Source: Isurus oxyrinchus
Taxonomy: Eukaryota
Assembly (NCBI GenBank): GCA_026770705.1
Contig: JANJGN010000041.1
Location: 1,116,001-1,180,000 of the forward strand
DNA: 64,000 nucleotides
Direction: 5' to 3'
This document shows, one piece after another, positions 1,136 through 54,242 of the stretch; positions within the stretch are counted from its first letter, which is position 1; every line of letters begins with the position of its first letter. The translations under genes were made by a program, and so were the position numbers. The notes below the pieces were generated by a model, which saw only the letters and a list, made by a program, of their open reading frames with translations, was not told where the DNA came from and did not search any database.

Positions 1136-1178
1136 AATTAATGCAACAATATTCATAGGTATTGTGTTCAATTTATAA
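1136..1178 (+). promoter_or_regulatory. Candidate GPCR promoter module (AATTAATG ... TTTATAA)
   Basis: AATTAATG at 1136-1143, then tcat..ttgtg, then TTTATAA at 1172-1178, ~140-180 bp upstream of the ATG at 1318. Same motif order as upstream of the 15145 and 41262 first exons. Confidence 0.4.
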
Positions 1179-1317
1179 GAGAAGTGAACTATTCATTGGA
1201 TTCAATTGCATTAAACAGTGTCTGTTATGACGTTGTATTGAAGCTGTGAAAAAAATAATCAGTTTTTCAAACTGATTCATTACCTTACACTGAATGAGAT
1301 CTTACAACCAAACTGGA

Positions 1318-1475
1318 ATGGATACGCACTCTACATTCTGGGATGTAGTATTGCCATTTATTCTTTATCATTCCTTGAGAAAATTGTGTCTCTTTGATGA
1401 ACGGCCTCATACTTAATTTATAGAAAATGTTTGACGTATTTTAATCTCCTGCTGCTTGCGTTTTTGGATTACTTC
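1318..1475 (+). pseudogene. Degenerate first exon (N-terminus + TM1) of a GPR139-like GPCR
   Basis: MDTHSTFWDVV...FIENV then, after a frameshift, PAACVFGLL, resembling IExIYYPILAxxGVP. In-frame TAA at 1414-1416; the expected donor reads c|taatg. Plausible partner of the + exon 2 at 10123. Confidence 0.45.
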
Positions 1476-3329
1476 TAATGAATGTAATTACCAGCTGTAC
1501 TGAGCTGGAGGTGAATAACACTTTGTCTTTTTTGTCTTGTTAGACTGTTGGATGGAAAATTTGTCTTTGAAGCTTTGGGTCAGTGTGAAAATGATCACTT
1601 ATTTTGTTTGTGACTGCGGAACTGATAGCATGACATGATTTTGGGATTCTTTCATGATCTGCCCCCTAACTGGTAGTAAAACAGCTCGCTGCATTTCTCC
1701 TTGCATCGACAATTTCGTCATCGTTCTGCTCCCTTTTAGTAACTGTCTGCAAGAGAAAAGAAAAACCTCTTATACTGCAGGAAATAGATTAAGCTCAATA
1801 CCTCAAAATGATCAAGGACATCTGTTGCAAAATATTCCTCTTGAACAAGAGAAAAATGAACGCCAGCAAAACCCAACAATATCAAAGCATGTTTCGAATA
1901 CTCTCGCGCAGGGCACTACTGCTGTTTTCCGCGCGTTTGCAGTAGCTTCACAGCCGTTCCTGGACATTTAGAATCGAACAGAACACAGCACTGCACTTGA
2001 ATGGAAATTCCACATTGAGCAATGACATTTAAGCGAGCCACTTTTATATATCGAGCATACATTCAACCAACCATTCAACGTGACAGGGTTGGGGTTGGAT
2101 GTTGGGGGGCAGCCAAATTTTCAAATGTGTCCTCCCATCTTCTTACCTGGTGACTGAATAAGATATCCTTTGCACCATATGCACATTGTGATTGTACGGC
2201 TATTTATTCCTGATTTTGTTGTTCAGCTACAATGAGTGAGATACTGGAACTAACCAAGGAAAGTGTATTGAAAGATGAGATGTGGCCTAGTCTCGGCTCG
2301 GGTAACCCTTTCACATTCTCTTCCAGTTGTCATTTTTTTCAGTGAACCTCAGTCGTTAGAATGAGAAAATAATCCGTTCCTCATTTTGGATTTCAGGAAA
2401 CATGGGCGTGGCATCTGCTCCCCAAAATATGACCAAAGGGATCCAGTGAAGGAAATTAGGTGGTTTGCCAAATACGCTGCCCTGCTAGATTCGTGTCTTG
2501 TACATTGAAGTGGTGGGAGATCCTCTCGTGAACGTGACCATTGCCCCAGTTCGTTAATTTCACGCTGGATGGAACATTTCTTCCTGGTAATCTGGATTTG
2601 TTTGACGGTTTACCTACCCAAACACGTTATCCCGTATTACTGCTTCCTGAGTAATTGTCTGTGTGCAGAGAAAAAGCACCTTTCAGTCTCCTGTTTCTAT
2701 TTCAGATCAGTGTGTATGAAGACAAAGTGTTTGAGAGTGTACGTGGGTTGTAAGAATGTGGAATTTGGAGGTAGAGGCTTGAGGACTCCACATAATATTA
2801 TTCTGAAGGGCGTCATAATGTATTCAGAGAAGGTAGTATTTCAGGCAGCCCAAGACCTCAGCAGTCTGAAAGTGTTAGTTTCGTTATAACACCCGAAAAT
2901 GTTTGAAATGCAGATAACCAGGAGATAGCCTTTACTTTCGCTCTATTAGACTTTTTGGTGGATGTGTTTAATAACTTTCCTCCAGGTTTCAAGAAAAATA
3001 CTATCTATCAAGCTAGGTTTCACTTTGTGCTCTAACTATTCCAGTAAGAACATCAGCTGGCATCAAAACAACTATTTATCAATCAACAGAGGGACTGATT
3101 TGAGTAATAATTCAACTGGCGAACGTGAAAATGAATCCTTCGCTGTGTTTGAAACAGGCAGCATCCCCCGAAGGCTAAGAGATTTAATCACCTTGTTTTT
3201 GATGGCTTTTTGAAGATGAGCAATTGCATTATGCCTGCTCCTTCCCTTCTCCATCCCCACAGCCATGCAGTTAAAACAGAAACACAAAGAGTTCAGGCAG
3301 GACATATGTTCACTTCAGAATCAGTAGGG

Positions 3330-14973: not shown

Positions 14974-15145
14974 CAACAACAGCCAGGATGGGATAGTAAC
15001 CTAGTTGTATTACCTGAATTACATGATGGATGCGCGGTGCTAATGGTATCCAATCGTAACATTTGAAAAGCCAGTAAAGCACAGAGGATAAACTCCTGTC
15101 CATTCTTGTAACATTCCAAACAGTTCTTCTCAGATTCTGATCCAT
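14974..15145 (-). CDS. First coding exon (long N-terminus + TM1) of a GPR139-like GPCR; partner exon not seen
   Basis: MDQNLRRTVWNVTRMDRSLSSVLYWLFKCYDWIPLAPRIHHVIQVIQLGYYPILAVV-G|GTAAGT. 172 nt open, phase-1 consensus donor, NVT glycosylation sequon, YYPILA signature. Confidence 0.8.
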
Positions 15146-15289: not shown

Positions 15290-15356
15290 ATTATAAATAG
15301 AAAAGGGAAACCCTCCAGTGACACAATTAGAATCCATGGAGACTGACATTAATTAC
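15290..15356 (-). promoter_or_regulatory. Candidate promoter of the 15145 first exon
   Basis: Minus strand: GTAATTAATGT (15346-15356), CTAATTG, then TATTTATAA (15291-15299), ~150 bp upstream of the ATG. Confidence 0.55.
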
Positions 15357-28199: not shown

Positions 28200-28545
28200 G
28201 ACCACATGGATGGAATTAATTAAAGTAAGTTTGTTGGTCAATTTGTGCTCGGGATGTTTCCTTGGACAACATGATGACCGGATTTTTTATTTTGTGGAGT
28301 TTAGCAGAGGTATAAATATCAGTTAAGACACAGCGGCCAACGAGAATTTTGCTCTTCGAATTAGTGGAATTGAATCTTTTACGTTTTACTCGTGAATCTA
28401 TTTGACATCTGATCTTAAAGCTCCTGATTCCAATAGTGCAGTATTACTTCACTACGGCAATGGAGATTTAGCCGAGAACTTTGTTCTGAACTCCTGGCGC
28501 CAGAAGTAAGTCTATCTCAGCACGGATATTTCATCTGATTGAGCC
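28200..28545 (-). mobile_element. DeuSINE-like (SacSINE1-type) ancient SINE
   Basis: atgaccggatttttt..gaggtataaatatcagttaagacac..ctcttcgaattagtgg..atcttttac and caatagtgcagtattacttcactacggcaatggagatttagcc resemble the reversed Deu-domain and head; mirrored at ~40270-40600. Confidence 0.55.
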
Positions 28546-28769
28546 ATAAATGGTCCGATTTTAAAACACCTACGCACCCCGATTAGTTACCTGGTTCGCA
28601 TTATTCTGCTCCATTCAATTTATCGCCCTCCACCACCTGCTGGTGTAATTCAAACTTCCAAATCTAACTAATTTACATTGAATATTGAAGTGAATTGGAT
28701 TAAAGCTTTTTCGGATTCCCCTGTCTCTTTGTGAAAGTCGCATTACTAAGTGACATGCAGGCGCTGACA

Positions 28770-29230
28770 AAAGAACATAGATGCCTAGGCAATGGGAGCA
28801 GAAGTTAACAATTTGGACGCTCGAGCTTGCTCAACCGCTCAAGTATATCATGGCTGTAATCATGCTTCACGTCATTCCCTTTCACGATCTCATATCTCTG
28901 GCCGCATTTAATACTTGGAAATTGCTTCATCGCCCTACATTCAACATACCCAATGACTGAGCCTCTGCCGCTGATGTGGGAGATAACTTCAAACATTCGC
29001 TGCTCTCTGAGTGAAGAAATTCCCCATTATATCTGCCCTAAATGCATACCTGTTATTCTGATACTGTATCACATAATATTAGACACATCCGCGGGGGAAA
29101 CATCCCTCCAGCATCTATATCATCGAACACTGTAAGAACGGTGTATGTTTCAGCGAGATCAATTCTCATTTGGCAAAGCTCCAGAAAGCATAGGCTCAGT
29201 CTCGTCAATGTCACCACATGGAAAATTCCG
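28770..29230 (-). mobile_element. CR1 3' end fragment
   Basis: aagaacatag..gggagcagaagt..ctcgagcttgctc..atcatggctg is the reverse complement of a CR1 tail; mirrored at ~39700-40110. Confidence 0.6.
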
Positions 29231-29854
29231 TTTTAATTCCCAGTAATGCAAAGAATTATCTTGTTAACATTCCTTGTCGCACAGCTCCCACAGCAGCGAA
29301 AATACTATCACCAAAAGAAGAATTTGCAATGCTTGCCCTGCAGCCCAAACATCACCATAATAATTCAACCTGGAAATTGAGGAGTTGGAGGTAGTTTGGG
29401 CTTTGAATTCCAGGTTATGGCTGTACACATCCTTGCTAAGGTTGATGACCAAAGTGTCTGGTGAATGCCCACTTTTGTGTTGCTGATCAGCTTGAGCTCT
29501 ACTCCATGTCGCAGAATGTTTGTGTCACACAATATTATGCAGGAACCTTCCAATGTGGAGGTCGACTTCGTCTGTACGAGGACTATTCCGTGGTCTATCC
29601 TATCAATACTGTAATGTGCAGTTGCCTATGTTGTTTGAAGGTTGGTGAGGCGAGTTCATTTCGGGCTTTGCACTTCGGTTTTTGCCCTGATCACCTGGCA
29701 ACGACCCAGTCTAGCAGTTATCTGTCTGATTCGGCCTGATCGGCCATTATTGGTGGATACCGATCCTATCTTCGTCATAGACATTGATGCCCCCTGCGTA
29801 CAATAATTTTTCTTTCTTGCCATTCCCCAAAACTTAGTTTAATGACTCACAAGT

Positions 29855-30145
29855 GTGCATAAGTTAAAGGTAAGGGACAGTAGGTTAAGGAGTGATGGGA
29901 GGAAAAACATTTTTCCACAGAGGTTGGTGACTATCTCTAATTCACTGCCTGGGAGGGTGGTGGAAGCGGGTTGACTCGCATCCTTTACAAAGTAACTGGA
30001 TGAGCAATTGGCACGTTTTCAAGGCCATGGGACAAGTGCTGGTAAATGTGATTAGGTAGTAGTTCAGGTGTTTCTCACATGCTGTTGCAGATTCGAAGAG
30101 CCGAAGGGCCTATTCTGCATTGTGATTCTGTGATTCCATGATTCG
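29855..30145 (+). mobile_element. 5'-truncated CR1 insertion specific to the left arm
   Basis: HKLKVRDSRLRSDGRKNIFPQRLVTISNSLPGRVVEAG and a gattctgtgattccatgattc tail; absent from the homologous site (~39065) in the right arm. Confidence 0.8.
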
Positions 30146-30399
30146 TCCATGGATGCTCATTCATTCATCATCTGTGGGGGGAGGTAGGTGGTCAACATAA
30201 AGGAATATTCCCGTGTTTTAATTAATGCCCGTGAAGTGCCCGTGTTTTAATTAATGCCATGAGGTTTATCATAAGTACCACGTGCTCTTAGTGTTCTGAG
30301 AAATGGTGCACACTGAATGTAGAGGATTTGCAAAATGTATATTAGGAAAGCAACAATGCTTTTGAGTGAAACCTAAATTCCCATTTAAGAAAAAATATA

Positions 30400-32270
30400 T
30401 TTTGCTCAGGTGTTTGTTGATGATCGAGATGAACTTTAAAATCAGTAAGAATAATTATTGGGTAAAGATAAAGAACTTGAATCATTAAAGCTAAGGACTG
30501 GTTGTTAATCAAGCAGCCTGCTTTGCCGTGAATTAGTTCAATATTGTTCAATGTTATTGAAGCAGAACACAGACAGAAAACTGTTGTGTATTGCAGTATA
30601 TTCGTGAATTGTCCATTGTAAATGGAGGGACGGTTTTGCAGAGTCAGGGGGTTATGTCCTCGCCACAGAATCCCCAGCTCCTGACCTGCCCTTCTAGTCA
30701 AAGTTTATAGTCAATGGTTATTCCATGGATGTTAAAAATGAGGAATTAAAAGATGGTGATACTATAAATGCATAGGATAACTTGCTGGACCCTTTCATTT
30801 TGTAGCTGGCCATTGCCTGTCAATTGTGTGGGGCTAATATGACTTGTCAGTTTTCAGCAGAAGCCTGGATTTTTCACAGGTCTCAATGCACACGGGCAAG
30901 ATTTTTTCCGCTTCTGTTGAGTCACGAATGGTGTTGAACTTTGAACAATCATTAGCGGACACAACACACCCCCCACCCCCACAAACCTTTCTCTGCATTT
31001 ATGACGCAGAGAAGTTAATGTATGCACTAGCTCAAGGTGGTTTGGCTTAGAACACTGTTCTCAGGATCTTGCGCACTGATGTCATCGGGATGAGATGATT
31101 CACCTGCAACACGAAACAAAAAAAATCTTCTTTTGTGAGAGGTATTTCTTCCAATCAATGGAGAAGGATCCTCGTTATTTTTACTGAACCCATTCTAAAC
31201 ATATCTCCTTGATACCACAGTATATGTTGTCTTGGTGTAAATAAGAGCTGCTCTCCACTCACATCGTGAATTCAGCAGTTTTGGCTATGTTTGGTTTAAG
31301 ATCAAACCGAGAGCTGGAGCTCATACAAAGCAGAAAATGGTCGCCAGTGAGCAGGTCACTGCCGAGTACGTGGCGAGTGAAAGCGATGCCCATGACACAT
31401 TCCATCATTTTGTTCATGATGATGATTAGGCACATGGGGCGTTAATTCGATTGGTTGGATTTGTCTTCTTTCGTATTGGTGGATAGGCCCAACTGTGCAA
31501 CTGATCTCATTTTCACGTAGATGCCAGTATTTTAGCTGCACTATACCACGTTGTCTAGGAAGGTTTATTCTGGAGAACTGATCTCCCGTATTATTGGCGT
31601 ATCTGACAGGTCCCATAGCCTCTGCATCATCCAGTTCCTTCAGTGATTCCTTAACAGCAAGCGTTGTGAAGGACATTCGCTCGAAACTGGAATCTGTGAT
31701 GCTCTCATTCACAGAAGGGGCCGGGATGATTCATCTGCCCGCCACGTCAGTCTGAATATGGTGACAAGTGCTTCAGCCATGTATATGCACTGATTCTGCG
31801 CTGCACAATCATTGCCGATGTGGATATTGGTGCGGTGTCTACCACCATTGAGTCTTTGAATGGTCCAACGCCATTCAAGATGGCATGAGCAGAACTTCGG
31901 AACACAGTTAACGTTATTTTCTGGTGGGAACAATTAGCCTGTCAATCATGTGCTGCATCCGCTGCTTTGTATGCAAGTCGTGCTGTCTCGGAATTCACCG
32001 GTCAAAGACGCATTGTTAGTAATGATTGTGGTATCTTCTGATATATGACAGATGTCGACAAAGGTCATCCATTCAAGCACTTCACCTCGAAAGCCTCGAA
32101 GGGCAAGAGCAGTAGTGGCATGTGAACACTATTATTGCAAAATCCTTTCGAAATCACACCCCATCCTTACTTGGAGATACATAAGCATTCCCTGATAGCC
32201 ACTGGATCAAACACCTGTAAATCCATCACTTGTAACACTGCCTGAGGACCCGCATCACATGGACAGCAAC
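30400..32270 (-). mobile_element. Old CR1/L2-group LINE fragments shared by both arms
   Basis: TRRAGQELGILWRG..LTLQNRPSIY and VKESLKELDDAEAMGP..QPIELTP; homologous to the 55777 ORF family. Confidence 0.65.
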
Positions 32271-35047
32271 AAGAAGTACATGTGTTGTCCGAAAAAATGC
32301 TCATCTTGCCAATGTATCCCAAGAAAGAAAGTTCTGTATAATGCCAAATCTATGAATGTTTTTGCCATTTGATATTGAAATGGCGGCTCTGCATGTTTAC
32401 TTTGTACGAAGAAACTCAGGTTAAGGACAACGTGAATCTTTTCATTCAAATCCATTCGCAGTACTTTTGTTCCTAAGTGCGAATGTCTAGCCTCAATTCC
32501 TTCCTGAATTTCTAAACATGTAGCCAAAACGATTGGCTGGAAATTTCTTCCTGAAATCGAACCCGGCACCGTCACACCCCCGATCACCCCACGCACCCAC
32601 CCCGCCCACCACACCACCAGCAGCCCCCACGCCCCCCCCCACCCCCAGCCCCCCCATAGCACCCAGCCCCCTCAAAACGTCACATCCGCACGAATATCAA
32701 TTACGTGCATCGGGTATAATGACGTCACATTGTTAAGTCTATAATATTGATTGAGATTGCTGAGAGCGAATGTGGCCTGGACAATTTGAATGCAATCAAA
32801 CGGCTGGGATAGTTAAATATTAAAAGGTAAATGGGAGGTGTAAAGAGTTAAATCATGTGTGTTGGTACAATGTGAAGTGGGAAATGAATGCGCATAATAG
32901 AATCTGCGCCAAGTAGAGTTATACTCTGGAAGAGGTAGTTGTGCAATGCTTGTTGGCTGGTCTATAGATGTGATAAGTACTGTGAAGGATGACTGTGCTA
33001 CAGGACTTACAGCTTGAAAAGAAACCATGACCATACTCTGAACGCTTATGACGGTAAAGGAGGAATGGTAAAGACACAGGACCAGAAAATGGTCAATGAG
33101 CTGCATCACAGACCAGCTTAGATGAGGCTGACTGCAAGTTTACACTTGTGTCATCACAGTGGCGGTACAATGACAATCAGTGCAAGGAATCACTCTTATG
33201 CAGATTCCCAGGGAGAAATTATGTTCGGGGATGGGAGCTGATCAGTCATGTGTTTTAAGTCAGACAGAATAACGTGAGATTGATATGCTGGCTGGGCAGT
33301 GTGCAGGCTAATTTCATCTGAACACATCGCTTATTAATGGCGGAAAGAGTGAATCAACATTGCTATGCACAATGGGTGTAGTCAGTGCTGATCAAGAGGG
33401 CAGTTTAATGGCGGACGGGGAAAGTTGACATTGCTATCAGATTCACTGGACAATATTTATTGGCCAGTTGGGCACATTTATTGCAAAGCATAGTGAATGA
33501 ACAATTCGATTCTGTGAGGTCATAACTAGCTCTTTTCTCACGAGTAGACAGGGCACAGTTGCTATTAATTGATTGGCTGCAAATCAACTCACTTTGTTGC
33601 CAAAAGGGCAGAAGTAAGTCGCTTGCATCTCAAGCAGAGCATCCGTGTGAAATGATTTTAAATGTGAAGCTGAAAATGGATTTTTGCTGGGCACCAAGTG
33701 CAGAAGATCGCAATAATGATTGACCGTGAATGGCACATCGATTTGTGCCTGTAGACTAATATATGTTCAGAAAAGTGAAATTACAAATTGACGATTAGCT
33801 GACGATAAAGATCTAACTCCAAACACACCCAGGTTTAAATTAATATCCTCGAAAGCTTAGTCCATTTCAGATTGGCCAGGCTCATATAACCCATGAATCT
33901 TAACATTATTGGTTAAAATGCATATTTCTTTTATCAAAATGCAGGAACATATTTAGGTAATTAGTGAAGTTATTCAATGCTGCATTATTATGCAAAAGAT
34001 TAACTTCAGACAGTTAAACGGATTAGTGATTAAATTAAATGATCTATATAAATCAAGCCTAATTACCATGAGCCTCAGATAATCACGGTTGCATTATGAT
34101 TTCTGTTGTTTCCTTAGTAAAGGTCCATTTGAATTTTGAAGAATAGATTTTCTAAGTGAATCTCTCTGAAATAATTTGTAGCTGCCAGATATGTAATGAC
34201 TTGATGCGCCCATTTAGTATTTTCTTTCCTGCAATTTGAAACAAGTTCATTTACTCCAGCCTGAATTATTATCGAAATTATCGAAATCGGCTCACTGTCG
34301 AAAATTTTTTGAGGTTCTGGTGGCGATTCTATAGGATAGGATGACATGACTCTGACAATGGTGCAGAACAGAGTTCCGACTGACATCTCCGGTCAGATTC
34401 GGGAGCGACAAATTAGGGAATGGAAAATGCACATTCTGAAAATAATGGGATGACTAGATAGAGAGTTATTTCAAGTGCCAACTGGTTTCATGGCTATGCA
34501 ACATGGCGCAGAATGAATGTAGCGTTTTCGCAAACCTGAACGTAGGGAAACAACAATGCATTGAACCTCTATAAACAGGTTGGTGAAACACGTTGGATTA
34601 TATTATTTCGGTAGGTTGTTAGTTAATGATTCAGACGAACTTTGAATGAAGTAAGGCAAATCAGTCGGATAAAGATAAACAGCTTTTTGCATTTCTGGAT
34701 CAGGGTGCAAGTTAGCAAGCTTTGACCACACAAAAATCTATATGTCCATTCGCATGACATACACAGCGCAGTTGGCAGCCTCTGACTCACAATTGCCGAA
34801 CCCAAATGCAAGAATCAAATATTGATTGCCCTAATGGAGCTGTTGATGATAATCACAAACATCCTTGAAGACGGCAGACAAAGGATAAAAAATTAAGCTT
34901 GAGTTTCTGTTGACCATAGAGGATTCAGTGGAAAAGGTGGAAACATTATTAATCAAAGCTAGTTTGACACAATTGCAGCTTAAAATAAATGTAAAGAATG
35001 AAAATTGACATTTGTTTACCCGATGGCTATTATTATTTGATCAAACC

Positions 35048-35082: not shown

Positions 35083-38000
35083 CTACAATGACATGCATTT
35101 AAACTGAGAGACATAATTTTCCGTGCACTTTTGTGAATTATACAAAGACTGTTAGCCAAATTATCAGCACTTGAATCTGTACTGGCCAGCACTGTAAATA
35201 AGTAAACAGTTTCCAAAATACAGTAATTTAAACAAAAATATAATGAAACAGCCAATGTTTGAACAAATTAATTATCAAAACTATTATGGCATAAATTATC
35301 AGTATATTTCCAGAATTTGCTTCCAATTAACCGTTCAAATGCCGCAGGAATGAACCACCCAATTATCTACCGATTGAAATAATGATCTATCCAAATCATT
35401 ATCCACTATTTAGCTAGCAAATTAAATATACAGTCAACAAATGTGTTATCAACATTATTCCCTACTGGATAAACTAGAAAAATGAAGATGTATTATGCTA
35501 CAGTATTGCCCATTGCTCTCTGCAACTGCAATCTGCTTCCGACCTGTTATTTATTTGCTGTTTGGGGAAAGGAGCATGGAACAGGTGCAGTGCACTTCGG
35601 TTTATGTGCCTCTTAATGTCGTTACTGCAAACACCCGAGTCTGAAGAACTACAGTGCGATGGAGTTTCCTCCACACTCCCAAATCCATATCACTTTAACA
35701 GCAATTTTCCTATGCACAATGTAAGGACAAAATAACAATTTCTTATGGCATCTTTTGCAAGCAAAACAGATCCTTAAGGGCTAATTCATGACAGTGAGTT
35801 TGTAAATGTTGTGGTGAATGCACCTTCGAGTGTGATCCACTGAATTGTGTTTGTGATTATGGTACATTGCTGCAAGGCTCCGTAGCAGCAGTAACACTAG
35901 AGAAGTGACACAAATCACCCGGCGCAGGATTAAAACGCTAATCATGATGTCAATCATAAAGATACATTTCTGTATGTAGACAGGGGCCGGGATTTTACGT
36001 TTTTCGGCAGCGTGAAATTGGACAATTGTAAAACTAAACCTTTCCCATCTCACCCTCACTTAGACCACCTCCCACTCTAAAATCCATTAATTTCCCACGG
36101 GGAGGAGGATTTGAGTGTTGCAAAAGTTAGTGGGGTCCAATCGGCAGTCAAAGCCTGAACATGATGCGTCAGATTGTAAAGCTGTGAACAGAAAGTCTAT
36201 ATGGCAGCAAGCTCAAGACCACCTGCTCTCAGAAACTGTTTTACTAACAATAGTTTGCGTGGAAAGCTCAGGCAAGAAAGATAAAAGTGAAAAGTAAACA
36301 TGAAGGCGCTGCCACCTTCCCCAGCAGAATCTGTTGCTACATTTAATCATGGTCCCAGAGGCTGATCATCTATTCTGCACGATTGTTGTCTGATGGTAGC
36401 TGCCCAGATACATATTTTTTCCTCTCGTCTGGGCCACAGTAAGTGTAAATCACGAATAAAGAAAACATATGACTGTGTCCTTCACAAACTCAATAACTTG
36501 CTAATTAATAACTTGTATAAGGTGGGCCCTCCCGTTCTCCATCTGCATCTGGGAGAGTCATGTACGTGACGTCAGTATACAAGATGCATGTCATTGTACT
36601 TCGTGCGGATTTGGCATTTTTGAGGGATTGGGTGGTGGGGAGTGGGTTTTGGAGGATGAGGGGGAGGGTGGGTGGCGGGGTGGCGGGGGGATGGTGCGAT
36701 TTGCTGACGAAAATTCCAGCCAATCCTTTTGGTTAAAGATTTAATATCCAGAAGTGAATTCAAAATATACGTTCTCTGATAAGGTCCAGTGTACTCCGAA
36801 ATAATTTACATTTCAGCATGCATTTGGTAGTTAATCTATGTTGAGTTGGAACAAAAGAAACACCCAGGGCCGTCAATTCTATACAAAAATGACATCAATA
36901 TTCACAGATTCGTCACAATGCAACAGGTTCTTTCCTTTGTATATGTTGACAAGTTTAGCACTTTTATATCCATATTCACTAATTCTTCTTGAAAATAAGG
37001 GTTTTCTAGTGTTGCAGTCCATGTGAAGCGCGTGCAGACACAATGCTTCGAGCGACAGATTTCCAGGTCTTTGACCCAGTGACAGTCAGGGAACGGTGAT
37101 GTCTCTCCACGTCAGCTTGGTGTATGACTTGGAAGGGATTTTGTAATGTTCCCTTGCATCTTCTGCAGTTGTCCTTCCAGGCTTTCGAGGACAAATGCAC
37201 AGACGAAGGAACTTTGCCAACATCTGTCATGTGTCCACACCATCAGAGACCAAACCTAGCATCACAGCTTAACCTGCTGGACTGCAGGACAAGGCTACTT
37301 GCAAGAAAAACAACGTATTCAGCATGAGGTCAGATCCGAAGTCCTATCACACTCAACTTGAATGCTGGCGGAAAGTTCTGCACCTTACTTTTGGACGGCT
37401 TCGACCAATATCCCCATCGGCATTGACTGTGGAGTACAGTGCACCAGTGCATGTACATGGCTGAAGACGTTGCAGCCAAATTCACCCTGAAGTGACGGGT
37501 GGATGAACCATTCCGGCCTGCTCCCAAGGATGACAAGCATGACAGATGCCAGTCTTCATACAATGTCATTCTAAGCACTTGAATTTAAGTAGTGACTGAA
37601 GGAACTGGATGATGCAGATCCTATGAATCGTTTTTGTTAATACCATTAGTACGGGAGATCAGTGCTCCTGAATAAGCCTTCCTATCAAGGCTGGTATTGC
37701 ACGTCTAAAATAATGGCATCTACGTGAAAATGTGAGCATTTTCACGTGCATGCCTAACCACAAAAAACACGACAAATCCACGAATCTAATAAAAACCCCA
37801 TCTGCCGACACTGCATCAGGTTAAAAGTGATAAAATTATAATGGACAATGCTTTCAGTCGCCAAGTACTCAGCAGTAAACTGCTCACTGAAGCTCACTTT
37901 GTGCATCGTGCAAGCTCCCGCTCTCGGTTCGCCTTGATCCAAGAATGGTCCAAAGTGCTGTACTCATGAGGTGAGGAGCGAGCAGCTGTGTTTTATTTCA

Positions 38001-40269
38001 AGACAACATTTGTCACATAATATATCAAGGAGGGCTATGAGACTTGTAGGCCACAAAGTCCCCGCTGCTTGGAGTCTTACTTAGCAAAATGTGTATTTTT
38101 TAGTTATCTTTTTTCTTGTTTTGTAGGTGAATCTTCTGAGCCCCATGTCATCACTGGACGAGAGCTTGAGGGCATCATCTGTGTCCAACCATCTTAAACC
38201 GCTGCAACAATGAATTTCACTCCTTTTTAAACACAGAAGGAATTTTTGGTGTTGTGTGGAGTGGGGGGTGGGGGTGGGGGTGGGTAGTGGGAGCGTTTTG
38301 AATCCATTAATCATTGTGCAAAGTTCAGCCTCATTCGCGACTCAGCAGATACCGATGACATCCGTTACATGTGCAAAAAGACCTGGGCAATAGCCAGACC
38401 TGTGCTGAAAAATGTCAAGTAATATTCGCCCCACACAATTTACAGCCAATAACCATCTGAACCAAAGGAATATCCAACAAAATACCCATGGCCTTTAATG
38501 GCATTACCATCCCTTCAAGCCCAATTTTCAACACCCTCAGATAGACCATTGACAAGAAACTGTGACTAGAAAGGCAGGTCAGAATCGGAGAATGCTGTGA
38601 TGAGCAACGCACACCCTGAATCTCCAAAACCTTTCCTCCATCTAATATACAGACATTAGGAGTGTGATGGGATACGCTACACTTGTGTAGATGATTTATG
38701 CTCCAATAGAATTCAAGGATATTGACTGAATCCAGGAAAAATCACATTGCTTGATTTGCAGTCAGTCTGGAAACTTAATGATTCAAGCTGTTTATCCTTA
38801 TCTGAATAATTATTCTTTCTGTTTTTAAAGTTCATAATAATCATAAGCAAACATCTGAGTGAAATAACCTTATGTAAAATTTGAATTATCTATCCAATTT
38901 CTCGGTATCACACAATTTCATTGCTGCTTTCCTAAATACCATTTTACAACACTTTCTGTGTGCACCATTTTTCATAGCCTTGAGAGCATGACATCACATA
39001 ACACATGGGCAATGAATGTCCCCTCCTGGAGATTATCTCCCGTTCCCCTCAGCAGATGAATCAATGATCATCACTGCCCGATCTTTTGCGGAGTGACAAG
39101 AAAAAAATGGACTTTATGTCGGGGCCATCGATGTCTATGGGCAAGAGAAGATCGGTAGTTCCAATAATGGCAGAGCTGGCAGAGTCATAAAGATAACTGC
39201 TAGACTGGGTGTTTGGCATGTGGGCAGGGAAACAACCAAGTGCAAAAGCCAATTTGAATTCGATCCACCAACCTACCCAACACATGTGCATCTGTCGAGT
39301 GTATGAGAGATAGGAGTGAACAGCACACGGTCCTCGTGCAGATGAATTCCGTCTTCACACTGGGGCTGCCGTCCATCATATTGTCTGAGACAACCAGTGT
39401 GCTAAATGGGGTAGGTTTCACATTGATCATGTACTCAAAAGTGGGCATTCACGAGGCAATGTGGACCATCAGCTGGAGCTGATTTGTGCACAACAATCAT
39501 TTGTATCCCCAAGCCCATTGTCTCTGAAATTTTCATTGTGAGAGTTTATTGTGATGTTTGTGGTGCCGGTCAAGCAGTCTACTTTTGCTCCTTTGGAGTA
39601 GATTTCATTAGGTGCTGTTGTAGTTCTGCGACAAGGAATGTTCAACAGATTACTTCTTGGATTACTGGTATTTAGCTGGGATTGTCTAACGTGGAGACAT
39701 TGACGAGACTCATCCTCTGCGTTTTGGAGCGTTGCTAAATGATAAGTGATCACACTGAAGCATTCACCGTTCTTAAAGGTAAAGGTGGTGTAGATCTTTT
39801 ATGCATGTTTCCCCTGGAAAGTGTGTCTAAAACCAGGAAAAGCAATATCGGAATTAGAGGTCTGCATTTAGTACTGAGAGAAGGAATAATTTCATCACTC
39901 AGGGAGGGATAAATATTCGAAATTATGTGCTGCAACATCGGCAGACGGGCAGTCATTGAAAATGTTGAATGTGCCGATGATCTGATTGCTCAATATTAAA
40001 TGCATCCAAAGAGATGAGATAGTTTATGGAATGCTGTGGAGGCATTTTTTCAGCCATGATATACTTGGGTAGTGGAGCACCCTCGTGCGGCCAGATGGTC
40101 AACTTCTACTCATATTTAATGTGAATCAGTTAGACTTGGAAGCAGGGTTTTCAAAAGCAGGAAGTGGAGGGATAAAATTTGAAATGAACAGAATAATGAG
40201 AAACAAGTAACTCCTCGCGGAGCATAGGTGTTCCGAAATCCGACTACTTATGTCTCAGTTAGCAATCTA

Positions 40270-40600
40270 CGTGCTGCGTTAGATCTTTGATAAATTACAT
40301 CTGGCATCAGTACTGGGGAAGAAAATTCTCAGCTAATTCTCCATTGCCGTAGTGAAGTTGTTCTGCATTATCGGATGTAATAACTTTCGGAACACATGTC
40401 AAATCTATTCACAGGATAAACATCAAAGAATCCATGCCACTATTTCGCCGAACAACATTGTCGCAGCCCCTTCCATCCTGACCAGTATTTAAACCCCGCT
40501 AAAGCCCACAAGAAAGATCATCTGGTCATTGTCAACTTTCTGCATGTGGAATCTTCCCGACCAAAAATTGCCTGTCACCGTTTGCGTTACTTCAGTGCGT
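40270..40600 (+). mobile_element. DeuSINE-like SINE (duplicate of 28200-28545)
   Basis: ctccattgccgtagtgaagttgttctgcattatcgga..atccatgccactatttcg..gaccagtatttaaacc..atctggtcattgtc. Confidence 0.55.
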
Positions 40601-41192
40601 ACATTTCATGTAAATTTATTAAGGTGTTCAATAAATGAGTCTGTAGAAATGCAGGTATTTCAATAGACAAGTTAGTGAGATACTGGAATATCTTCGGCAC
40701 ACAGAGTAAATTCTTTCACCCAGACTTCCAGATATCCTCTCTGTATGCTGATTTTCAATGCATCGCTGTGGTAATAAGCATGTAATTTGACAGGGATTCC
40801 ATTCCTTTAAATACTATAAAATGGATGAAAATCATTAGCAAATACTTGAAGTATTTCAACCAGAATTTTGCAAAATGCGAATTTGCCTCTGCACAGATGT
40901 ACACAGATTGTGTTTTCCAAAAGTTCAAACTGGGTTTGCACTTGATTATGGTTATTAATGCAGAGCCCACCCTGTTACATAACATGCAGTAAAGCAAGAA
41001 CAAGGTGTCAGCAGTGGATAACATGGAGTGTAAGGTAGAGCCACAGGAAGAAATCTGTTAACGTTATGGTTAAACATACATCCCTGCTTTGATGACTTTC
41101 CAACAGTAAAGAAACGATTCCATGTTATCAGAACCAGTGTTTGAGAAGAACGTCAACATCTAATTATACATGTATTGTATTTAGGCTCTTAC

Positions 41193-41262
41193 CAGGAACA
41201 CCAACAGACGCGAGAATAGGATAGTAAATGGCTTCAATCGGTACAAGTATCAGTTCTCCCAT
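41193..41262 (-). CDS. First coding exon of a GPR139-like GPCR (paralog of the 27572 exon); partner exon not seen
   Basis: MGELILVPIEAIYYPILASVGVP-G|GTAAGA; 70 nt, phase 1, intact hydrophobic TM1 start. Confidence 0.82.
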
Positions 41263-41339
41263 TCTATGGAGAGATGCCTTTCCTGCAGAGCTGGATGCAC
41301 AAGATGGAATGAATGTGTAAACTGAGACGATGAAGCACT

Positions 41340-41420
41340 CTTCTTTAAACTCATTTCAGGAATATTAGAGAAACACATTAACATCACAAGAGATTAGGTA
41401 TGAATTGCCACATTAATTAC
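41340..41420 (-). promoter_or_regulatory. Candidate promoter of the 41262 first exon
   Basis: GTAATTAATGT (41410-41420), an 11-mer identical to 15346-15356, followed by ..ttgtg..TTTAAA..gagtgctt. Confidence 0.5.
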
Positions 41421-42899
41421 TCTGGAGCACCAGGTAAAACTGGCACGACTGCATTCATAGCAGGCAATAGAGAAAGGCTGCAAACTTTGGCTAACATGAA
41501 GCCCTCTAGTTAAGTAATGAAACTCATGGCTGCTACGATCTAGAAGGACAAAGGCAAAATCAACATGGGAAAGCCACATGCTGAAAGTTCCTCTCCCAGC
41601 CATTCATCACCCTGGTTCAGAAAAGTTTCGCCGTTCCTTCACTGTTTATGTGTCAAATTAAAGGACACCCCCCTTCCCCTGCTAATAATAACGTGCATGT
41701 AACAGCACCAAAAAGACAGCAGCAGCTAACCACCCACTTCACAAGGGGAATTAGAGGTGGACAATAAATGCCTTCCTTACCAGCATTTCCCTCAACCATG
41801 AATGGAAAGACGGACAGAAATTTATATTGCTAGTCCAAGAGCATGTTAATAAACATACATCAGAAAACGACAGCTTCGAGAATGGGTTTGTAAATGGACC
41901 ATATCTGATGAAGTACGACAAAGTATATCCTTGTTATGAAGCAATAACTCCTGTTGAAACAGATACATCGAGCCTGTTGGAAAACATGAAATGTGACATT
42001 CAGAGAAACAGTTATGTAGGCAGCAGATAAATCCTCATGAGCGCTTTCATGTCCCCTAAAGAAATCAATTAGTTTCAGACATTGAACAAACAGGTTACGT
42101 CAGTCATTCTCCAATGTATGGAGAAAGCTTTTGTTTTCTCAACCGAAATATTTCCAAATAATGTGTTGAAGACAATCCGACCACATATACTCACAGTAAC
42201 GATTCACCACGCTATGCAATTCTCCTGCTCACCCACTCTCATACTCCATCCACAGTGATGGTTGACCTGAATGAAAAACCCTTTTTTGAATTAAAAAATG
42301 GGATATATAGACTACATCGCTTGGAAGGTGTTCCACTCTTAACATTTAATTCTTAACCCTCAAACGTCTTCTGCAGACAATCATTAGCAGATGGATGCAC
42401 TGATTACAATGAACCCAAATCGATGGTGCCTCCGGCTTTGGTGTGGGCTGCATTTCAAACACCCATCAAAAGCAGATTATTTAATGGCAGTAGGTCATTC
42501 GGCCCCTTGAGCATGTTCTGCAACTCGTAAAGCTCATGCTTGATCTGATTGTGACCTCAGCCCAGCTATCCTGCCTGCGCTGCACCAACTAGCGTTTTCC
42601 GGCAGCCCCTTCTGCCACTCCCCACACATCACGCACTTACATGCTCATGACCAGAGTATCCCTTATTGTTCAATAAACTTTTCAACTCAGCCATAATCAT
42701 ACGACAGCACTGAACAGATGAACAGTCTTATTCTCTCTTCTTGCAAAGTGGTTCGTCAGTGTGAATCCATTTCATGTCACTTGCGGCGGCAAATAAGGCT
42801 GTTTAATTCGCTTTAATGCGCAGCCCAGCTCTGTTTGTCATATATTTGTCGATCATTCTCCAAGCATGCGCTCAAAGAGCTTGGCACAGGATTACACAT

Positions 42900-44250
42900 T
42901 TATGTCAGGACCACAGGCAGCCTTTTCAAAGAGCCAAAATTAAATCCTGGCACAGAGGTTACTGGAAAGCTACAGAGGGAAGTCTTATTCAGGGAATGAT
43001 ACACACTCATAACTCAGGATCCAGAGACACTCAGCTGCCTCCTAAGCGCTTTGCTGCAAACTCAGAATTTTTCCGATTGACAATATATCTGAGGATAGAG
43101 ATGATGCATCAAATCGTTGCTGGTCACGTGCTCCAAGATACCACAGCCGCTTTGAACAACGCACTACTCTGTTCAATACAGAAGTTTTGCTAACTTGGCA
43201 GCATGCACCCCAAGGGCACTAACTGGATGGGCAATTTACCCACCGCTTGACAAAAACAAGATCGGCAATTGGCAGGATTCAGTCACTGACTTCTCCAAAG
43301 AAAACATGGATTTTCCCACAGATGGAAGGTCAAGGCCTGCCAGACAGTGTTTTTATCACTTCCATACCAGTGCGAGACTTGCATAACCTTTCGACCTCAT
43401 AGAAAGCTAATGAAAACTTTCCGACTTCACTGTCTGTGAACCATTTCTCACTCTACTTGGCAGGGCAAAATCGGCAAAACCGAATCTTGCAAAGTGCAGC
43501 AATCCTGACATCGAAAATATGTTAATTAGAGCCCCGGTTCCCTGGGTAGGTCATGCCGTTCATCTGGAAAATGCCTACGTATCAAAATACCACACTCAGT
43601 GAGCACGAGAAGCTCCACAACAGGATGTCTGAGATCTCAAGGCCAAACTCAGAGATTGGAAGCTGGAACTCACTACATGGGACCCTAACACTACCGTTCT
43701 AAAAGGAACATGGTGTGCCTGCACCATATAAAGCACACACCCAGCGCACTGGAATTCTGTTACTAAAATAGGCCGGCTTCTGGTGAAAAGCCATACGGAT
43801 TGGTGAGAGGGGCAAGGCTGTGTTGCCCCCCAGTCAAAATACTGCAAAAATGTGGCAGATATGTGGCACGCGTCGGGCACATTTGTCCGGAAAGGTTACC
43901 TATCCATACCTGCATCTGCCACTTAGCAATCCTCGTCGAAAGGGCGGCCAAAGAGAAAGGTGTAAGGCTGCTCTCCAGGTCTCCATAAAGCACAGAGGCC
44001 TTAATACCAGGTCACGGGAGGAGAATGCTGCCAGTCTCTCAGCCTGGCACCACGCAGTCCATCAAATCGAAAACCGTTTTCAGGCTCAGTGACTCCAAGG
44101 AGTGATGGAAAGGCCGAGGCACAGCCAGTCGATGTGAAACATCCTAGGCCTCTAATTTCCAAAATTAGTGCTAAAAACCTATCCCACGGCGGAAAATCAT
44201 GTTGGTCCAGAATTGGAATCTTCAGTCATCTGAAATCACGCTGTGCCTAA
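42900..44250 (+). mobile_element. RTE/BovB-like LINE 3' region (apparently two tandem C-terminal pieces)
   Basis: LHCL*TISHSTWQGKIGK..AKCSNPDIENMLIRA..WVGHAV; RRKGGQRERCKAALQVSIK..SAWHHAVH; GKSCWSRIGIFSHLKS. Only the last ~170 bp is kept in the left arm (25450-25620 -). Confidence 0.75.
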
Positions 44251-44861
44251 TGTACTTTATTCTAGTTACAGATGGAATGCCCCTGACGTCAGTAAGATGA
44301 AATACACAATTTCAGGAAGGTAGAACACCTCCACATATTCAAGGGCAATTTGGGTGGAGCAGTAAGTTGTGGCCGATCTAACCACAGCCCTGCCACATGA
44401 AAGGATACGTTTGAAAACATGATTGTGAAGAAAATAACAAACCTTCGGCACAACCAAATGTAGGAATCATCCAGTGATTTCAGCATTTGACGATAATAGA
44501 GTCAAGTGCAATAAGGACAAGGAAGCGCAGGCAAAGTTAATTGATTCCGCCTGAACAGACATTTTATGCCAGATTTGGCAATCGATTGTCCAGGTATAGA
44601 CCTGATCTAATCTCATACATGATATCACAGTGCCACTTTTTTTTTTGCCACGCACTCACATGTCGATGGGCTGGGAGAATTAATCATCAAGATAGTTAGA
44701 CAGACAGACTGACATACAGATAGACAGACATATAGATGCAAAGAGAGAGAGACATTCAAATGGTTAGACTGATTTGAAGAGAGAGTTGTACATGAGAGAG
44801 AGAATGAATTAGAACATGCAACAAATGGACCGAGCGAGTGAAGGAGCAAGAGGTTAAGAGA

Positions 44862-45371
44862 NNNNNNNNNNNNNNNNNNNNNNNNNNNNNNNNNNNNNNN
44901 NNNNNNNNNNNNNNNNNNNNNNNNNNNNNNNNNNNNNNNNNNNNNNNNNNNNNNNNNNNNNNNNNNNNNNNNNNNNNNNNNNNNNNNNNNNNNNNNNNNN
45001 NNNNNNNNNNNNNNNNNNNNNNNNGGATAGATAGATCGATAGGTGGATAGAAANNNNNNNNNNNNNNNNNNNNNNNNNNNNNNNNNNNNNNNNNNNNNNN
45101 NNNNNNNNNNNNNNNNNNNNNNNNNNNNNNNNNNNNNNNNNNNNNNNNNNNNNNNNNNNNNNNNNNNNNNNNNNNNNNNNNNNNNNNNNNNNNNNNNNNN
45201 NNNNNNNNNNNNNNNNNNNNNNNNNNNNNNNNNNNNNNNNNNNNNNNNNNNNNNNNNNNNNNNNNNNNNNNNNNNNNNNNNNNNNNNNNNNNNNNNNNNN
45301 NNNNNNNNNNNNNNNNNNNNNNNNNNNNNNNNNNNNNNNNNNNNNNNNNNNNNNNNNNNNNNNNNNNNNNN
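44862..45371. other. Assembly gaps within a GATA/GA-rich microsatellite
   Basis: N runs 44862-45024 and 45054-45371, flanked by gata/gaca repeats. Confidence 0.95.
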
Positions 45372-45374
45372 AGT

Positions 45375-45666
45375 TGGGAATCCAAAACATAAACAGAAAT
45401 ACCTGGAAGAATTCAGCAGGTCTGACAGTATCTTTGCAGAGAAACACAGTTAACGTTTTGAGCTCGTATGACTCTTCAAAAGAAATAAGGAAAAATACAA
45501 CAGAGGTGAAATATAAGCTGGTTTAAGGGAGGGGGTGTGGGACAGGTAGAGCTTGATAGAAGGCTAGTGATCAATGTCATATGGACTCGAAACGTTAACT
45601 GTCTTCCTCTCCAGGGATTCTCGCAGAACTGCTGAGTTTATCCAATTATTGATGTTTTTGTTTTAG
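45375..45666. mobile_element. Palindromic Penelope-derived element inserted in a GATA repeat
   Basis: aaacagaaatacctggaagaattcagcaggtctgacag..gttaacgttttgag..gactcttc and the inverted gtcatatggactcgaaacgttaac..ctgctgagtttatcc..tttttgttttag. Confidence 0.7.
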
Positions 45667-46229
45667 TTATAGAGATAGATGGATGGATAGATAGAAAGAT
45701 TTGAACATGAAGGGCTGAAATACATATACTTCTTGCAACAAATTTCCACTGTCGGATCATTGATAAAGTCCACCACGAAGCGGAAAGAGGTGATTATGAA
45801 TTAAAACGAAACATAAAAAGGCAATAAATTTACACATGCATGTATCGAACACGAATAAAACTTGGAATTTCGCCTGACCAATCACCCTTAATATCGGATC
45901 GGATATGATGTCCAGGAACCCAATCGAAGCCATTCGCTTTGAGTAGCAAATAATACAAAATGAAAGATAACACTTTCTTCGTGACAGGAACACAAGCATC
46001 GTTAAATTACCGGGAAGAGAAAAAAAACTAGGAAAAACAATCAAAACTGATTCACCAGACCTGGAGCAAAGGGGATATTTTCTCTTGACCTGGCCTATAA
46101 AACTCAGCTCTTTGCTGCATTCAATATGTGAACTCATAATCGACCTGGACAACATATTCAGTCACATACATGTGTCTAAATACCATTATCAAAAATGCTT
46201 CGGGGCGATCGCAAAAATAAAGTGAACAA

Positions 46230-50800: not shown

Positions 50801-52299
50801 GAACTGCAGAAAATGAAAGTGTGAAATCTGTACATTCCTGCAGACCATTCCCGTCCTTTGGCTGCCCCAGATCTCTGAACATATAATAAGTTACTGTCGT
50901 TAATGTTTCAAGCAGCAAAACTCATCAGCCAGTTAATAACCAGGTAATCTGTTTTGCTGATGCTGCTGAAATAATCAAATTGGTCCCAAGGGACGCTTCT
51001 GCATTTCTTCCAATGGTGACAATCATTGTGACGTTTTGGATGATCGGGTGAAACGCATTGAAGGTGATAGGCAGATAATCCGATGGCAGATGGAGGAAAA
51101 GTATTTATACGGAACCTGCCCATGTGACCTGTAAGGTGATTCCTGAAAGGGTAATGGAAGAAGGTGCAATGTTAAATCACAAATGAGGTGTTCTGGGCGT
51201 AATTGAACAGAAAAAGAGTGATGGCAGAGCAATGAAGAAAGTGAAGAGATCGTTTGGGCGGTATTCGGCAGCAATTTCAAAGTTCCAGCAGATATTTAAT
51301 GGGCTAATTGGTCCTCTTCTCTTCCGATTGGTTCTTAGCTTATAAATCTTGAACAATTATTTTAAACGTTCACAATTTCAATCATTACACAGATCGGTCT
51401 CTCTGTTCCTTAACAAGTTCCCGTCTTGTGTGAATGTCTCTTTATCATGCTCAGAATGGAGATAATCTTCATTGTGTTCATGTTATTATTAATTACATAA
51501 TATCTGATCAGTTCCAATAAAGAGCATCTGTGCTGGTGGAGCACTGGGAATACAAGTCCCAAGGACAAAGTATTCCATATCTTCTCTTGAGCACCTCAGA
51601 GGCAGAATGAGATCACTGGAGCACGGATGCTGTTTATTGAAACTGAGCATAATGGAGATGACCATATTTCACAGCAGGCACTGTAGATCGAGATTGATTG
51701 AAACAGGAGGAATCAATCTCCCATTTCAAGCATGTCCCTCCGTTCAGCTAACAGCAGTCTGATGTGCTCTGAACACTACCACCCCAATTTTCTCCCATAA
51801 CCATGAAAACACTCTCCAAATTCAAACTCCTCGCTTTGGTTCCAGGCCCTTTAAAGAAACAACAAATAATAGCATTTCAGTTATAGTGGACTTACCCAGT
51901 CTCCACTGATATCATCTATTACATTTCTCCAAGGCTCCCAATATCGCCTAACAGCGCAAACACTCGCAATTTTTAGGTGATATTAGTTTCAGGATCTGGC
52001 TTAAATCCCTTTACCCAAGAAGTCGCCTGACGCTAAATGAGGACTGAACTGTTGCTTCAGTTCAAGGTTCCACATTGGCTACAACAGAGGGGCATGAAGC
52101 CCGCCTCACCAGCAAAGGGAATTGGCTTGTACGTGTTCCTATTCCCATGCCGCACCAACATTCCACAGAACGCCAATCACTACCGATGATATTGCCCCTT
52201 AGTTCAATCCATGTACCCTTAAATGTGCCTGCTGCCCGGAACTGTTCTCAGTGACACAAGAAAATGATGCTCTTCTTCGTTCATCTTTCTTCTCAAAGG

Positions 52300-52960
52300 G
52301 GAAGAGGTACAAAGCGATTTGAGTGTAAAAAAATATCAATCACTACGATTTGACGTATTTGTTAACATGGTGTTAGAAAAATCTAAACCAAGCACTTGGC
52401 TTCTTGCCTTAGGGGATGGAAATGAAAGGTCGGAAAATATGCCAAAACTGACAAAAATTTCGTTGACCAAATTTAGGCAAATGCGCGCATGGTCAAAATG
52501 CATATAAAAGCGATTGATTATGATTATGCCAGGAAAGTGCGGGTTTACATAGAAGGAGGAGTTTTCAGACTGTGGCTCTTCTCTCTGGACAAATGCAAAC
52601 AAGTCTCCAGGATGGCACAATACAGGTATTTAAAATGCAGGCTTTTTGGGAGATTGGGTACACAGAGAATGTTTCCTCTTATGTGGAGGGTCGCAACTAA
52701 ATGGTGATCAATGTACGACAATCAGCAAATTATCCAATAGGGAATTCAGGAGAGACCTCATGCCCAGAGAGTCGTGAGAATGTGGAATTCGTTGCGGGAT
52801 GGTTCGGGTGAACATTATAAAACTCTTCAAGTGGAAACCAAGAAAGCAGCTGAGAGAGATGACAATGGAGTGAAAAAAATGGTAGACATGGATGAGGAAA
52901 GATGTGTGGAGACTCGTGGGTAGATTTAACAAAGGCAAAGTCCTTTTTGGCAAAATCACT
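52300..52960 (+). mobile_element. CR1 C-terminal/3' fragment
   Basis: RLWLFSLDKC..; ggaattcaggagagacctc..cccagagagtcgtgagaatgtggaattc (FTQRVVRMWNSL-like). Confidence 0.6.
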
Positions 52961-53454
52961 CTTACATTTATTGTTCATGTTCATCAGTAAAGCGATCACT
53001 CTTTTTGCTACCAGACCAGGCCGGGATCTAGGAGCAGTATGTTAAGTAACTCATCACATCACTCCCCAAAATATGAGAAAAATCTGCATGAGACAATTGT
53101 GGACTGTTTTAAGACAGACATATGAGCTGGCCAAATGGAGTTGGGGGAGCGGTTGGGTGGAGGTGGTGGGTTGTGTGGGTAATGCTGCTGGGAGAGCTCC
53201 ATGTACAATTGGTGTGAAGAAGAAGGAAAGTGGGCCAGCGGATTGCCCATTGGGAGTTCTGTTATTCTGGAGACCATGAAATCTAATCCGGGCGAGGAAC
53301 ATTCAATTTGCAAAAGTCAATTGTTCTACGGACAATGTTTACCATTTGCGAACACCCCTCAATTCGTACGTTGCCTTGCTGGCAAGCCCCTCCACACGCT
53401 GAAAACCTGCAATAGCATTCGGCAAAGCTGCATATGAACAGTGTTTCATTTGTT

Positions 53455-54242
53455 TTAGTCATAGCTCATCAAATTCTTCAAGTGCAATCGCAACAGATTC
53501 TGAGTCACAATATAAATGCAAATGATCGTGCATGAACTCAGGAGCTGTAGAATAAAACCAAATACTTGCACACAATTACCTGGATACATTAAACTAGACA
53601 ACTCACCCCAACATCTGCCACCACAGAGAATAAACTGCAAACCATGACCGTAAATAGGTGCAATTGTTTGAGAGGACAACAATAAAATATTGGGTTCCCT
53701 TCGGTTTTCCATCTTACTGATAGCCCGGAGTCTCCTGCGGCGTCTGCTGGTCAGTAACGTGTGCCTGACAGTGAAACCATTGAGCAGCAGAAGGAGGGCA
53801 AATGGCCACTCCGGGGTTAGAATGCAGGACATTTATTGTCATTTACCAGAGCGGGTTTTTATCGTTAGCCAATACTCATTTGCTAACAATAAATATCAGA
53901 AAATGTTCCTTAGATAGCCCAAAAAGGTCACTATTACCCGAAGCCCAGCCGCTGTTTCGGCAGCGCAATAATTACATTTCAGATTTTGGCAACTAATGGC
54001 TACAGAGCTTTCAATGGTGTGAGTGATTGTAAACCAGGCAGAACAGTCAGTGGCTGATAGTATTGGCATTACACACAGGGGTGGAGTTCAAGAAACAAAA
54101 CTCTTTTTAGAAAAGAATCAGAAAGTGTTGGAATATCAGGCTGAGGAAACCAGGTTTGCCACTGCCATTGTCACTATTTGCCGATTGTACATTTGGAGAG
54201 ACCACACTTTATGCAAATGTGGCACAACCGTCAATTTGTTAG
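53455..54242 (-). pseudogene. GPR139/GPR142-like GPCR exon 2, heavily disabled
   Basis: Acceptor ctcttatgctcAG|, phase 1: (A)NKLTVV..KCGLSKCT..IVTMAVANLV; ATDCSAWFTITHTIESSVAISCQNLKCNYCAAETAA..LRNIF*YLLLANEYWL; ILTPEWPFALLLLLNGFTVRHTLLTSRRRRRLRA..MENRR..FILQLLSSCTIICIYIVTQ. Several frameshifts and stops. Confidence 0.9.

Follow-up and report, generated by a model that had tools for sequence, protein, structure and literature searches.

What kind of receptor family left its exons in the 64-kb stretch of Isurus oxyrinchus DNA analysed here (contig JANJGN010000041.1 of assembly GCA_026770705.1, positions 1,116,001 to 1,180,000; called the window below and numbered from its first letter)? A preliminary description saw in it a tandem array of GPR139-like GPCRs (G-protein-coupled receptors) and proposed a lineage-specific repertoire that senses amino acids. 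We found that the window holds the scattered remains of dead class A receptor genes with two exons each, which locally amount to ordinary pseudogene debris; no intact receptor gene was found in its 64 kb. The pieces nest among chondrichthyan proteins that RefSeq and UniRef name 'probable G-protein coupled receptor 139', and they are members of that set, but the copies in the window are dead.

Receptor pieces were sought by six-frame motif, tblastn and hidden Markov model (HMM) scans of the window. The confirmed pieces scored 321, 135, 88, 23 and 14-15 bits with the HMMs, and the reversed window at most 3.5 bits. A phase-1 GT donor closes all three clear first exons, as had been described, so that the intron falls in the first transmembrane helix (TM1), and an AG acceptor precedes both long second exons. 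Five of the six exon pieces of the preliminary description were recovered at exact coordinates on both strands. The sixth, at 1136, was lost: neither the first-exon HMMs nor tblastn with 260 family proteins matched it, and DNA tiles over 701-2100 ranked only 40th to 333rd of 350. Long and short N-terminal subtypes are indeed both present, and both second exons are indeed disabled by stops, frameshifts and changed conserved columns. The proposed first-exon architecture YYPILAxxGVP stood in part, as GVP is absent from the first exon at 15 kb. 'Tandem array' proved too strong a term, since no first exon in the window is followed by an intact second exon on the same strand and what remains is mirror-duplicated debris. 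A quick tree placed two subfamilies side by side in the window. Three further candidates for second-exon relics, near 58.1-58.4, 55.0 and 31.6 kb, were not accepted; they reached 4-6 HMM bits or 31 blast bits, reversed controls reached 2.3 HMM bits and 30 blast bits, and DNA support was nil.

The second exon at 10 kb, of the long subfamily, has stops at 10419, 10698 and 10739 and a 1-base deletion near 10725, and its DRF motif has become YPF. When conserved columns were defined as those at least 95% conserved across the 120 closest proteins, 24 of 108 were altered in this exon (family median 2%, maximum 9%). It is up to 65% identical to family proteins. With Pfam 7tm_1 it scores 22.5 bits and misses the cut-off, which a pseudogene would be expected to do. 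The deletion is also present in a gap-free contig spanning 10472-11726 from X1, a public run that may be related to the source of the assembly. The second exon at 54 kb carries several frameshifts, stops and deletions, with 41 of 95 conserved columns altered, and no first exon for it was found in 54300-64000. In the 15-kb first exon the sequence suggests that a 9-base deletion removed the GVP motif, and its decayed N-terminal repeats extend to about 15196. The long-subtype N-terminus at 15137-15196 (minus strand) consists of 7-residue repeats with N-glycosylation-like motifs, their copy number differing among members; one X1 contig omits 138 bases there.

This first exon is directed away from any second exon on its own strand and faces the 10-kb exon of the same subfamily. 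It is therefore possible that the two are one gene broken by an inversion. The DNA between them includes, at 12280-12482, a hairpin built from two copies of a very high-copy element placed head to head (the 57-base arms are 96% complementary), and the corresponding bin has about 11,400-fold read depth versus about 0.5 for unique DNA. The hairpin could mark an inversion break. A looser pair lies at 45375-45664, and 21983-22128 was noted together with these pairs.

The pieces of the second subfamily lie in the two arms of an old inverted duplication of about 8.5 kb. This duplication, the two second-exon stubs and the pair of first-exon relics are absent from the preliminary description. The arms are about 65-68% identical (65% over 7966 aligned columns), with a Kimura two-parameter distance of 0.48, and each holds, in the same order, a truncated second exon, a first-exon relic and a short first exon, with about 650 bases between the relic and the short exon downstream of it. 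Both second-exon stubs stop near TM3, at about the same point in each arm (at 24 kb the remainder of the exon is absent); for this reason the truncation is likely older than the duplication. In the 46-kb stub the acceptor AG has become CG and TM3 contains a frameshift, and a protein search with this stub alone gave 11 candidates and zero accepted matches. The short first exon at 27 kb has Glu-Pro substitutions within TM1. Of 23 codons compared between the two short first exons, 13 differ in the amino acid and 4 only silently, and these exons are no more conserved than their surroundings (76% identical, flank median 68%, with 15% of windows reaching 76%). Thus, at least one of them is drifting. 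No second exon was found in the window downstream of the short first exon at 41 kb, whose partner may lie outside it. The relic at 41.9 kb exceeds the background at the DNA level (95th percentile 44.5; score in Table 1) and is weak by HMM, with 4.2 bits versus 3.5 for the control.

Table 1. Receptor pieces and related features in the window. Coordinates of exon pieces on the minus strand run from high to low.
Feature	Coordinates	Strand	Evidence
Second-exon pseudogene of the long-N-terminus subfamily, from TM1 end to helix 8	10123-~11020	+	tblastn/HMM, lesion counts
Orphan first exon, long subtype; ATG 15145, phase-1 donor at 14973	15145..14974	-	HMM 88 bits
Putative TATA-like box upstream of long first exon	15291..15299	-	by eye
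5' stub of second exon (TM1 end to TM3), second subfamily, with stops	24502-24760	+	43 bits
Probable older first-exon relic, approximate boundaries	26944-27015	+	DNA alignment of the two arms
Orphan first exon, short subtype, phase-1 donor	27572-27641	+	HMM, splice site
Orphan first exon, short subtype, open frame, phase-1 donor	41262..41193	-	HMM 23 bits
Probable older first-exon relic, approximate boundaries	41935..41860	-	DNA score 78.5
5' stub of second exon, second subfamily	46010..45729	-	41 bits
Heavily decayed second exon, long subfamily	54242..53455	-	tblastn/HMM, lesion counts
Inverted duplication, left arm	24287..32728	+	self-alignment
Inverted duplication, right arm	36566..46229	-	self-alignment

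The family behind these pieces is large. With the 10-kb exon as query, 306 matching proteins were obtained from 1711 candidates; by hand tally, 118 of the best 120 of these are shark proteins from 10 species, led by horn shark (54), whale shark (19) and sharpnose sevengill (13). A profile built from 34 of the listed proteins and searched against 1.84 billion representatives matched 133 clusters at E≤1e-30, a number that is no subfamily count, as the clusters were defined at 50% identity and many are fragments or mis-joined models. Thirty of the 150 listed matches were picked by hand for taxonomic look-up and included 23 chondrichthyan, one salamander, one coelacanth, two teleost and two amphioxus proteins; among these 30, all 23 identified rows at or above 237 bits are chondrichthyan. 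The chondrichthyan members come from sharks, rays, skates and Callorhinchus. The expansion is therefore not specific to one lineage, contrary to what had been suggested, and is instead common to sharks, rays, skates and chimaera. In two raw-read runs from a single sample of this species, with reads counted at 90% likeness, the 10-kb exon has about 21-23 times the depth of unique DNA nearby, which indicates that close paralogs of this exon exist genome-wide. A sequencing run guessed to be RNA placed some contigs on the 10-kb exon and was not used. The many related proteins, the raised depth, the dead copies and the two subfamilies bear out the earlier proposal of a multi-copy family with birth-and-death turnover.

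Removing fragments and five outgroups from the 150 listed proteins left 47 full-length representatives, 23 of them taxonomically assigned, with a median pairwise identity of 46%. In the quick tree (70 rows) the 10-kb and 54-kb exons fall in one clade (Shimodaira-Hasegawa-like approximate likelihood-ratio test, 100) and the two stubs, which fill only 20-24% of the columns, in another (96). A tree of 33 rows chosen by hand from these 70 nests the 10-kb exon in the family at 100/100. Intact members exceed the Pfam 7tm_1 cut-off (P0011 72.6 bits, P0149 67 bits), and the class A marks D2.50, C3.25, D-R-(Y/F), W6.48 and N7.49-Y7.53 are conserved. A predicted structure shows seven long helices at a predicted local distance difference test score (pLDDT) of 65, and a fold search with this model was uninformative, returning generic peptide receptors with GPR139 outside the top 50. 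Five database models (P0002, P0003, P0058, P0088 and P0112, from RefSeq/UniRef) have retroelement-like starts that match repeats of the window. Orphan second exons have probably been joined to false first exons in such models, which would inflate gene counts.

How close is this family to GPR139, whose name it bears? Among solved structures, human GPR139 is the best match by sequence (E 1e-14; PDB 7VUG, 9M42). It scores 57 bits with the family profile, below the 94 bits at which the profile-search listing ends, and 38 bits with P0011. The same profile gave 173 bits for a salamander orphan, 164 for a coelacanth one, 148 and 103 for teleost and 107 and 96 for amphioxus genes. True GPR139 orthologs, which have two exons, are 70-96% identical to the human protein across bony vertebrates (PMC7318219). 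The 38-57 bits, below the scores of several other orphans, do not fit orthologs of this kind; by this measure the family is not GPR139 proper. The 33-row tree includes neither GPR139 nor GPR142, and its salamander branch is long; it groups the salamander gene with the family at 97/97, away from the coelacanth, teleost and amphioxus genes. A search from an amphioxus relative gave nine matches, eight of them amphioxus, and reached no GPR139 or GPR142. In place of the close GPR139 affinity of the preliminary description, we see a clade of its own, to which orphans from non-mammals stand closer than GPR139 does. The other automatic labels on family members are 'neuropeptides capa receptor-like' and 'vasopressin V2 receptor-like'; all these names are automatic best-hit labels, and they are misleading.

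GPR139 and the family are both class A and two-exon, and the GPR139 intron may sit at the same position as the phase-1 intron in TM1 of the window genes. Unlike GPR139, the family lacks the R244/N271 pair, gains Asp3.37 and retains P6.50 in only 7 of 47 representatives. Its closest outgroups are GPR139-like orphans of salamanders (Pleurodeles, Ambystoma, Lissotriton), coelacanth and teleosts. No comparable expansion of these non-mammalian orphans turned up in our searches, and the coelacanth and teleost genes retain R6.51. The salamander gene (P0233, P0272-P0275), the nearest bony-vertebrate relative, is intact in three genera and might serve as a low-copy model in the search for a ligand. The name GPR210A/B has been given to orphans of this group from coelacanth and fish, with no shark mentioned in the available part of that paper (PMC6504862), and 'Orphan 139-like' appears as an unresolved row in a review table (PMC5207463). 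The closest orphans are probably one or the other of these, the match to GPR210A/B being a guess from the taxa. A relationship of the branch to the MIP, FMRFamide and proctolin receptors of protostomes has been reported (PMC8514136), and our sequence searches likewise place the family in the GPR139/MIP/FMRFamide receptor branch.

To describe what intact members have kept, we used residue numbers transferred from HMMER alignments and a list of pocket positions that we take to follow class A numbering. In the 47 representatives the activation switches are nearly invariant: R3.50 is present in 47, N7.49 and D2.50 in 46 each, and W6.48 and Y7.53 in 45 each. Mean entropy was 2.62 bits at pocket positions, 1.98 bits in the rest of the outer half and 1.08 bits in the inner half (p=0.0007 versus outer half, 2e-9 versus inner half, for positions and sequences that are non-independent). 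Positions 3.29, 3.32, 3.33, 5.39, 5.43, 6.51, 6.58 and 7.39 vary among charged, polar and aromatic residues. An acid (Asp/Glu) occupies 3.37 in 41/47 representatives, 120/120 of the closest listed matches and 1/9 outgroup rows, and an acid is found at 5.42 in 18/47.

The aromatic amino-acid sensing that was proposed for this family can be compared with what GPR139 uses. Activation of GPR139 by Trp/Phe is reported to require F109, W241 and N271, and surrogate agonists require H187; N271 together with R244 was modelled as the holder of the amino-acid backbone, and R244 mutants failed to reach the surface (PMC5430874). R6.51 occurs in 1/47 representatives, N7.39 in 2/47 and the two together in none. 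Nor is R6.51 seen in any of the 120 closest listed matches, yet it stands in 7/9 outgroup rows. In Trp/Phe-pocket terms GPR139 has F3.33, H5.43, W6.48, R6.51 and N7.38/39; an aromatic residue at 3.33, the His, W6.48 and the Asn are combined in 0/47 of the family. In the long subfamily, the aromatic residue at 3.33 is kept in 118/120 and a His matching H187 in 117/120. Since the polar GPR139 residues for the amino-acid backbone are absent, amino-acid sensing is unsupported, and the family is likely not the amino-acid sensor that its database name implies.

What, then, might the intact members do? Two marks of chemosensory repertoires were found, a large clustered family with pseudogenes and a hypervariable pocket on a conserved scaffold. 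Judged from sequence, the intact members could quite plausibly, if tentatively, serve as a repertoire that detects many ligands, most likely in sensory cells, and these ligands would probably be cationic. Segmental duplication and inversion in repeat-rich DNA would keep adding copies, most of which die; the inverted duplication would have copied genes already truncated. Survivors would retain one G-protein output while the pocket changes. The shared acid at 3.37 (Asp/Glu), frequently accompanied by an acid at 5.39 or 5.42, may anchor a positively charged group (an amine or a basic peptide) and would take the place of GPR139's carboxylate anchor. There is a precedent in Asp5.42, which anchors amines in an expanded olfactory TAAR clade of teleosts (PMC4695389). 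In favour of such a repertoire, too, the catshark is reported to have only 5-8 OR, ORA and TAAR genes each (PMC6368271). In its full form, this proposal would make the family an unrecognised major chondrichthyan chemoreceptor family, likely exceeding the OR, TAAR, V1R and V2R sets together, descended from an orphan related to GPR139 and still present in salamanders, and using Asp3.37 for amine or basic-peptide detection in nose, taste buds or skin; taken with every part, it is doubtful.

Several points weigh against a sensory repertoire. Any old family of paralogs with different ligands is expected to vary in its pocket, and such variation shows neither sensory use nor positive selection. Several pocket sites are uniform across the long subfamily (H5.42 in 117/120, F7.39 in 111/120), and net pocket charge is negative in 33/47 family members versus 7/9 outgroups, which gives no separation. 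The deep relatives of the family are neuropeptide receptors (PMC8514136). According to the available part of PMC11979771, the top 50 genes of a catshark brain-plus-olfactory library include no GPCR, although no known olfactory receptor is on that list either.

Birth-and-death turnover, the variable pocket and the shared acid also fit immune or barrier surveillance. In that case the family would be a chondrichthyan counterpart of MRGPR/FPR-type receptors on granulocytes, mast-like cells or epithelia, responding to cationic host or microbial peptides. The acidic pockets of MRGPRX2 take cationic ligands. The whale shark genome paper reports the absence of MAS1 and related genes from cartilaginous fishes (PMC8455134), so that this role may be vacant there. 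However, kinship to MRGPR or FPR was absent from the sequence searches made, and we consider this explanation rather unlikely.

Another reading is that duplication-prone regions multiply an orphan neuro-endocrine peptide receptor in a mostly neutral way, and that only a few of the copies matter. This would account for a window in which every piece is dead or orphaned and for short first exons that differ mainly at amino-acid positions and are conserved like their flanks. It would also agree with the RefSeq models that have retroelement-derived false first exons, and with the peptide receptors among the deep relatives (PMC8514136). Against this stand the many divergent full-length members, which keep near-invariant switches across sharks, rays and chimaera and therefore need long purifying selection on many subfamilies; a mostly neutral history is improbable. 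An expanded repertoire for Trp, Phe and other amino acids, sensed in the manner of GPR139, could appeal to the best solved-structure match and to W6.48, which is kept; with its aromatic residue and His, the long subfamily may have preserved the hydrophobic sub-pocket. Such sensing is very unlikely, as N271 is needed for Trp/Phe in GPR139 (PMC5430874), the family is without the R6.51 and N7.39 pair, and R6.51 is kept in the outgroups instead. Finally, that the lesions are assembly errors in intact genes is practically negligible: the window does contain three N gaps, but the gap-free short-read contig has the same frameshift, many conserved columns are altered in both long second exons, and the two stubs break at about the same place.

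Elsewhere, the window (about 41% GC) contains reverse-transcriptase relics in the same DNA as the receptor pieces. Decayed pieces of the long interspersed nuclear element (LINE) type lie at 13.2-14.8, 46.7-47.2, 55.7-56.2 and 62.8-63.0 kb; an RVT_1 domain match covers 13625-14257, and the other pieces were assigned by sequence likeness. A decayed stretch resembling a long-terminal-repeat retrotransposon occupies 3500-4520 on the plus strand; a protease-like word and a zinc knuckle in degenerate form were recognised there by eye. A direct repeat of about 135 bases (61861-61994 and 63439-63576; 75% identity) has its copies 1578 bases apart.

According to published descriptions, cartilaginous fishes have few GPCRs and odorant receptors (PMC8455134; PMC6368271). 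A large, old and pocket-diversified family would change this picture, be its role in smell, in taste, in skin sensing or in immunity. The window contributes dead copies only, yet it shows the turnover of the family. Literature searches that did not extend to most subscription papers or to the catshark supplement on expression found no description of the expansion, and a term look-up found no mention of it in PMC12294341, PMC8455134 (text and supplements), PMC11979771, PMC10468316, PMC10620051 or PMC10115646. The proteins are already in RefSeq under their automatic name, and the repertoire is apparently undescribed.

By analogy, the family likely works like other birth-and-death receptor repertoires. 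OR, TAAR clade III, V1R/V2R, T2R, MRGPR and FPR genes likewise cluster, include many pseudogenes and combine a variable pocket with a conserved scaffold. The family differs from them in having no sequence membership in any of these repertoires, and Pfam assigns it only to 7tm_1.

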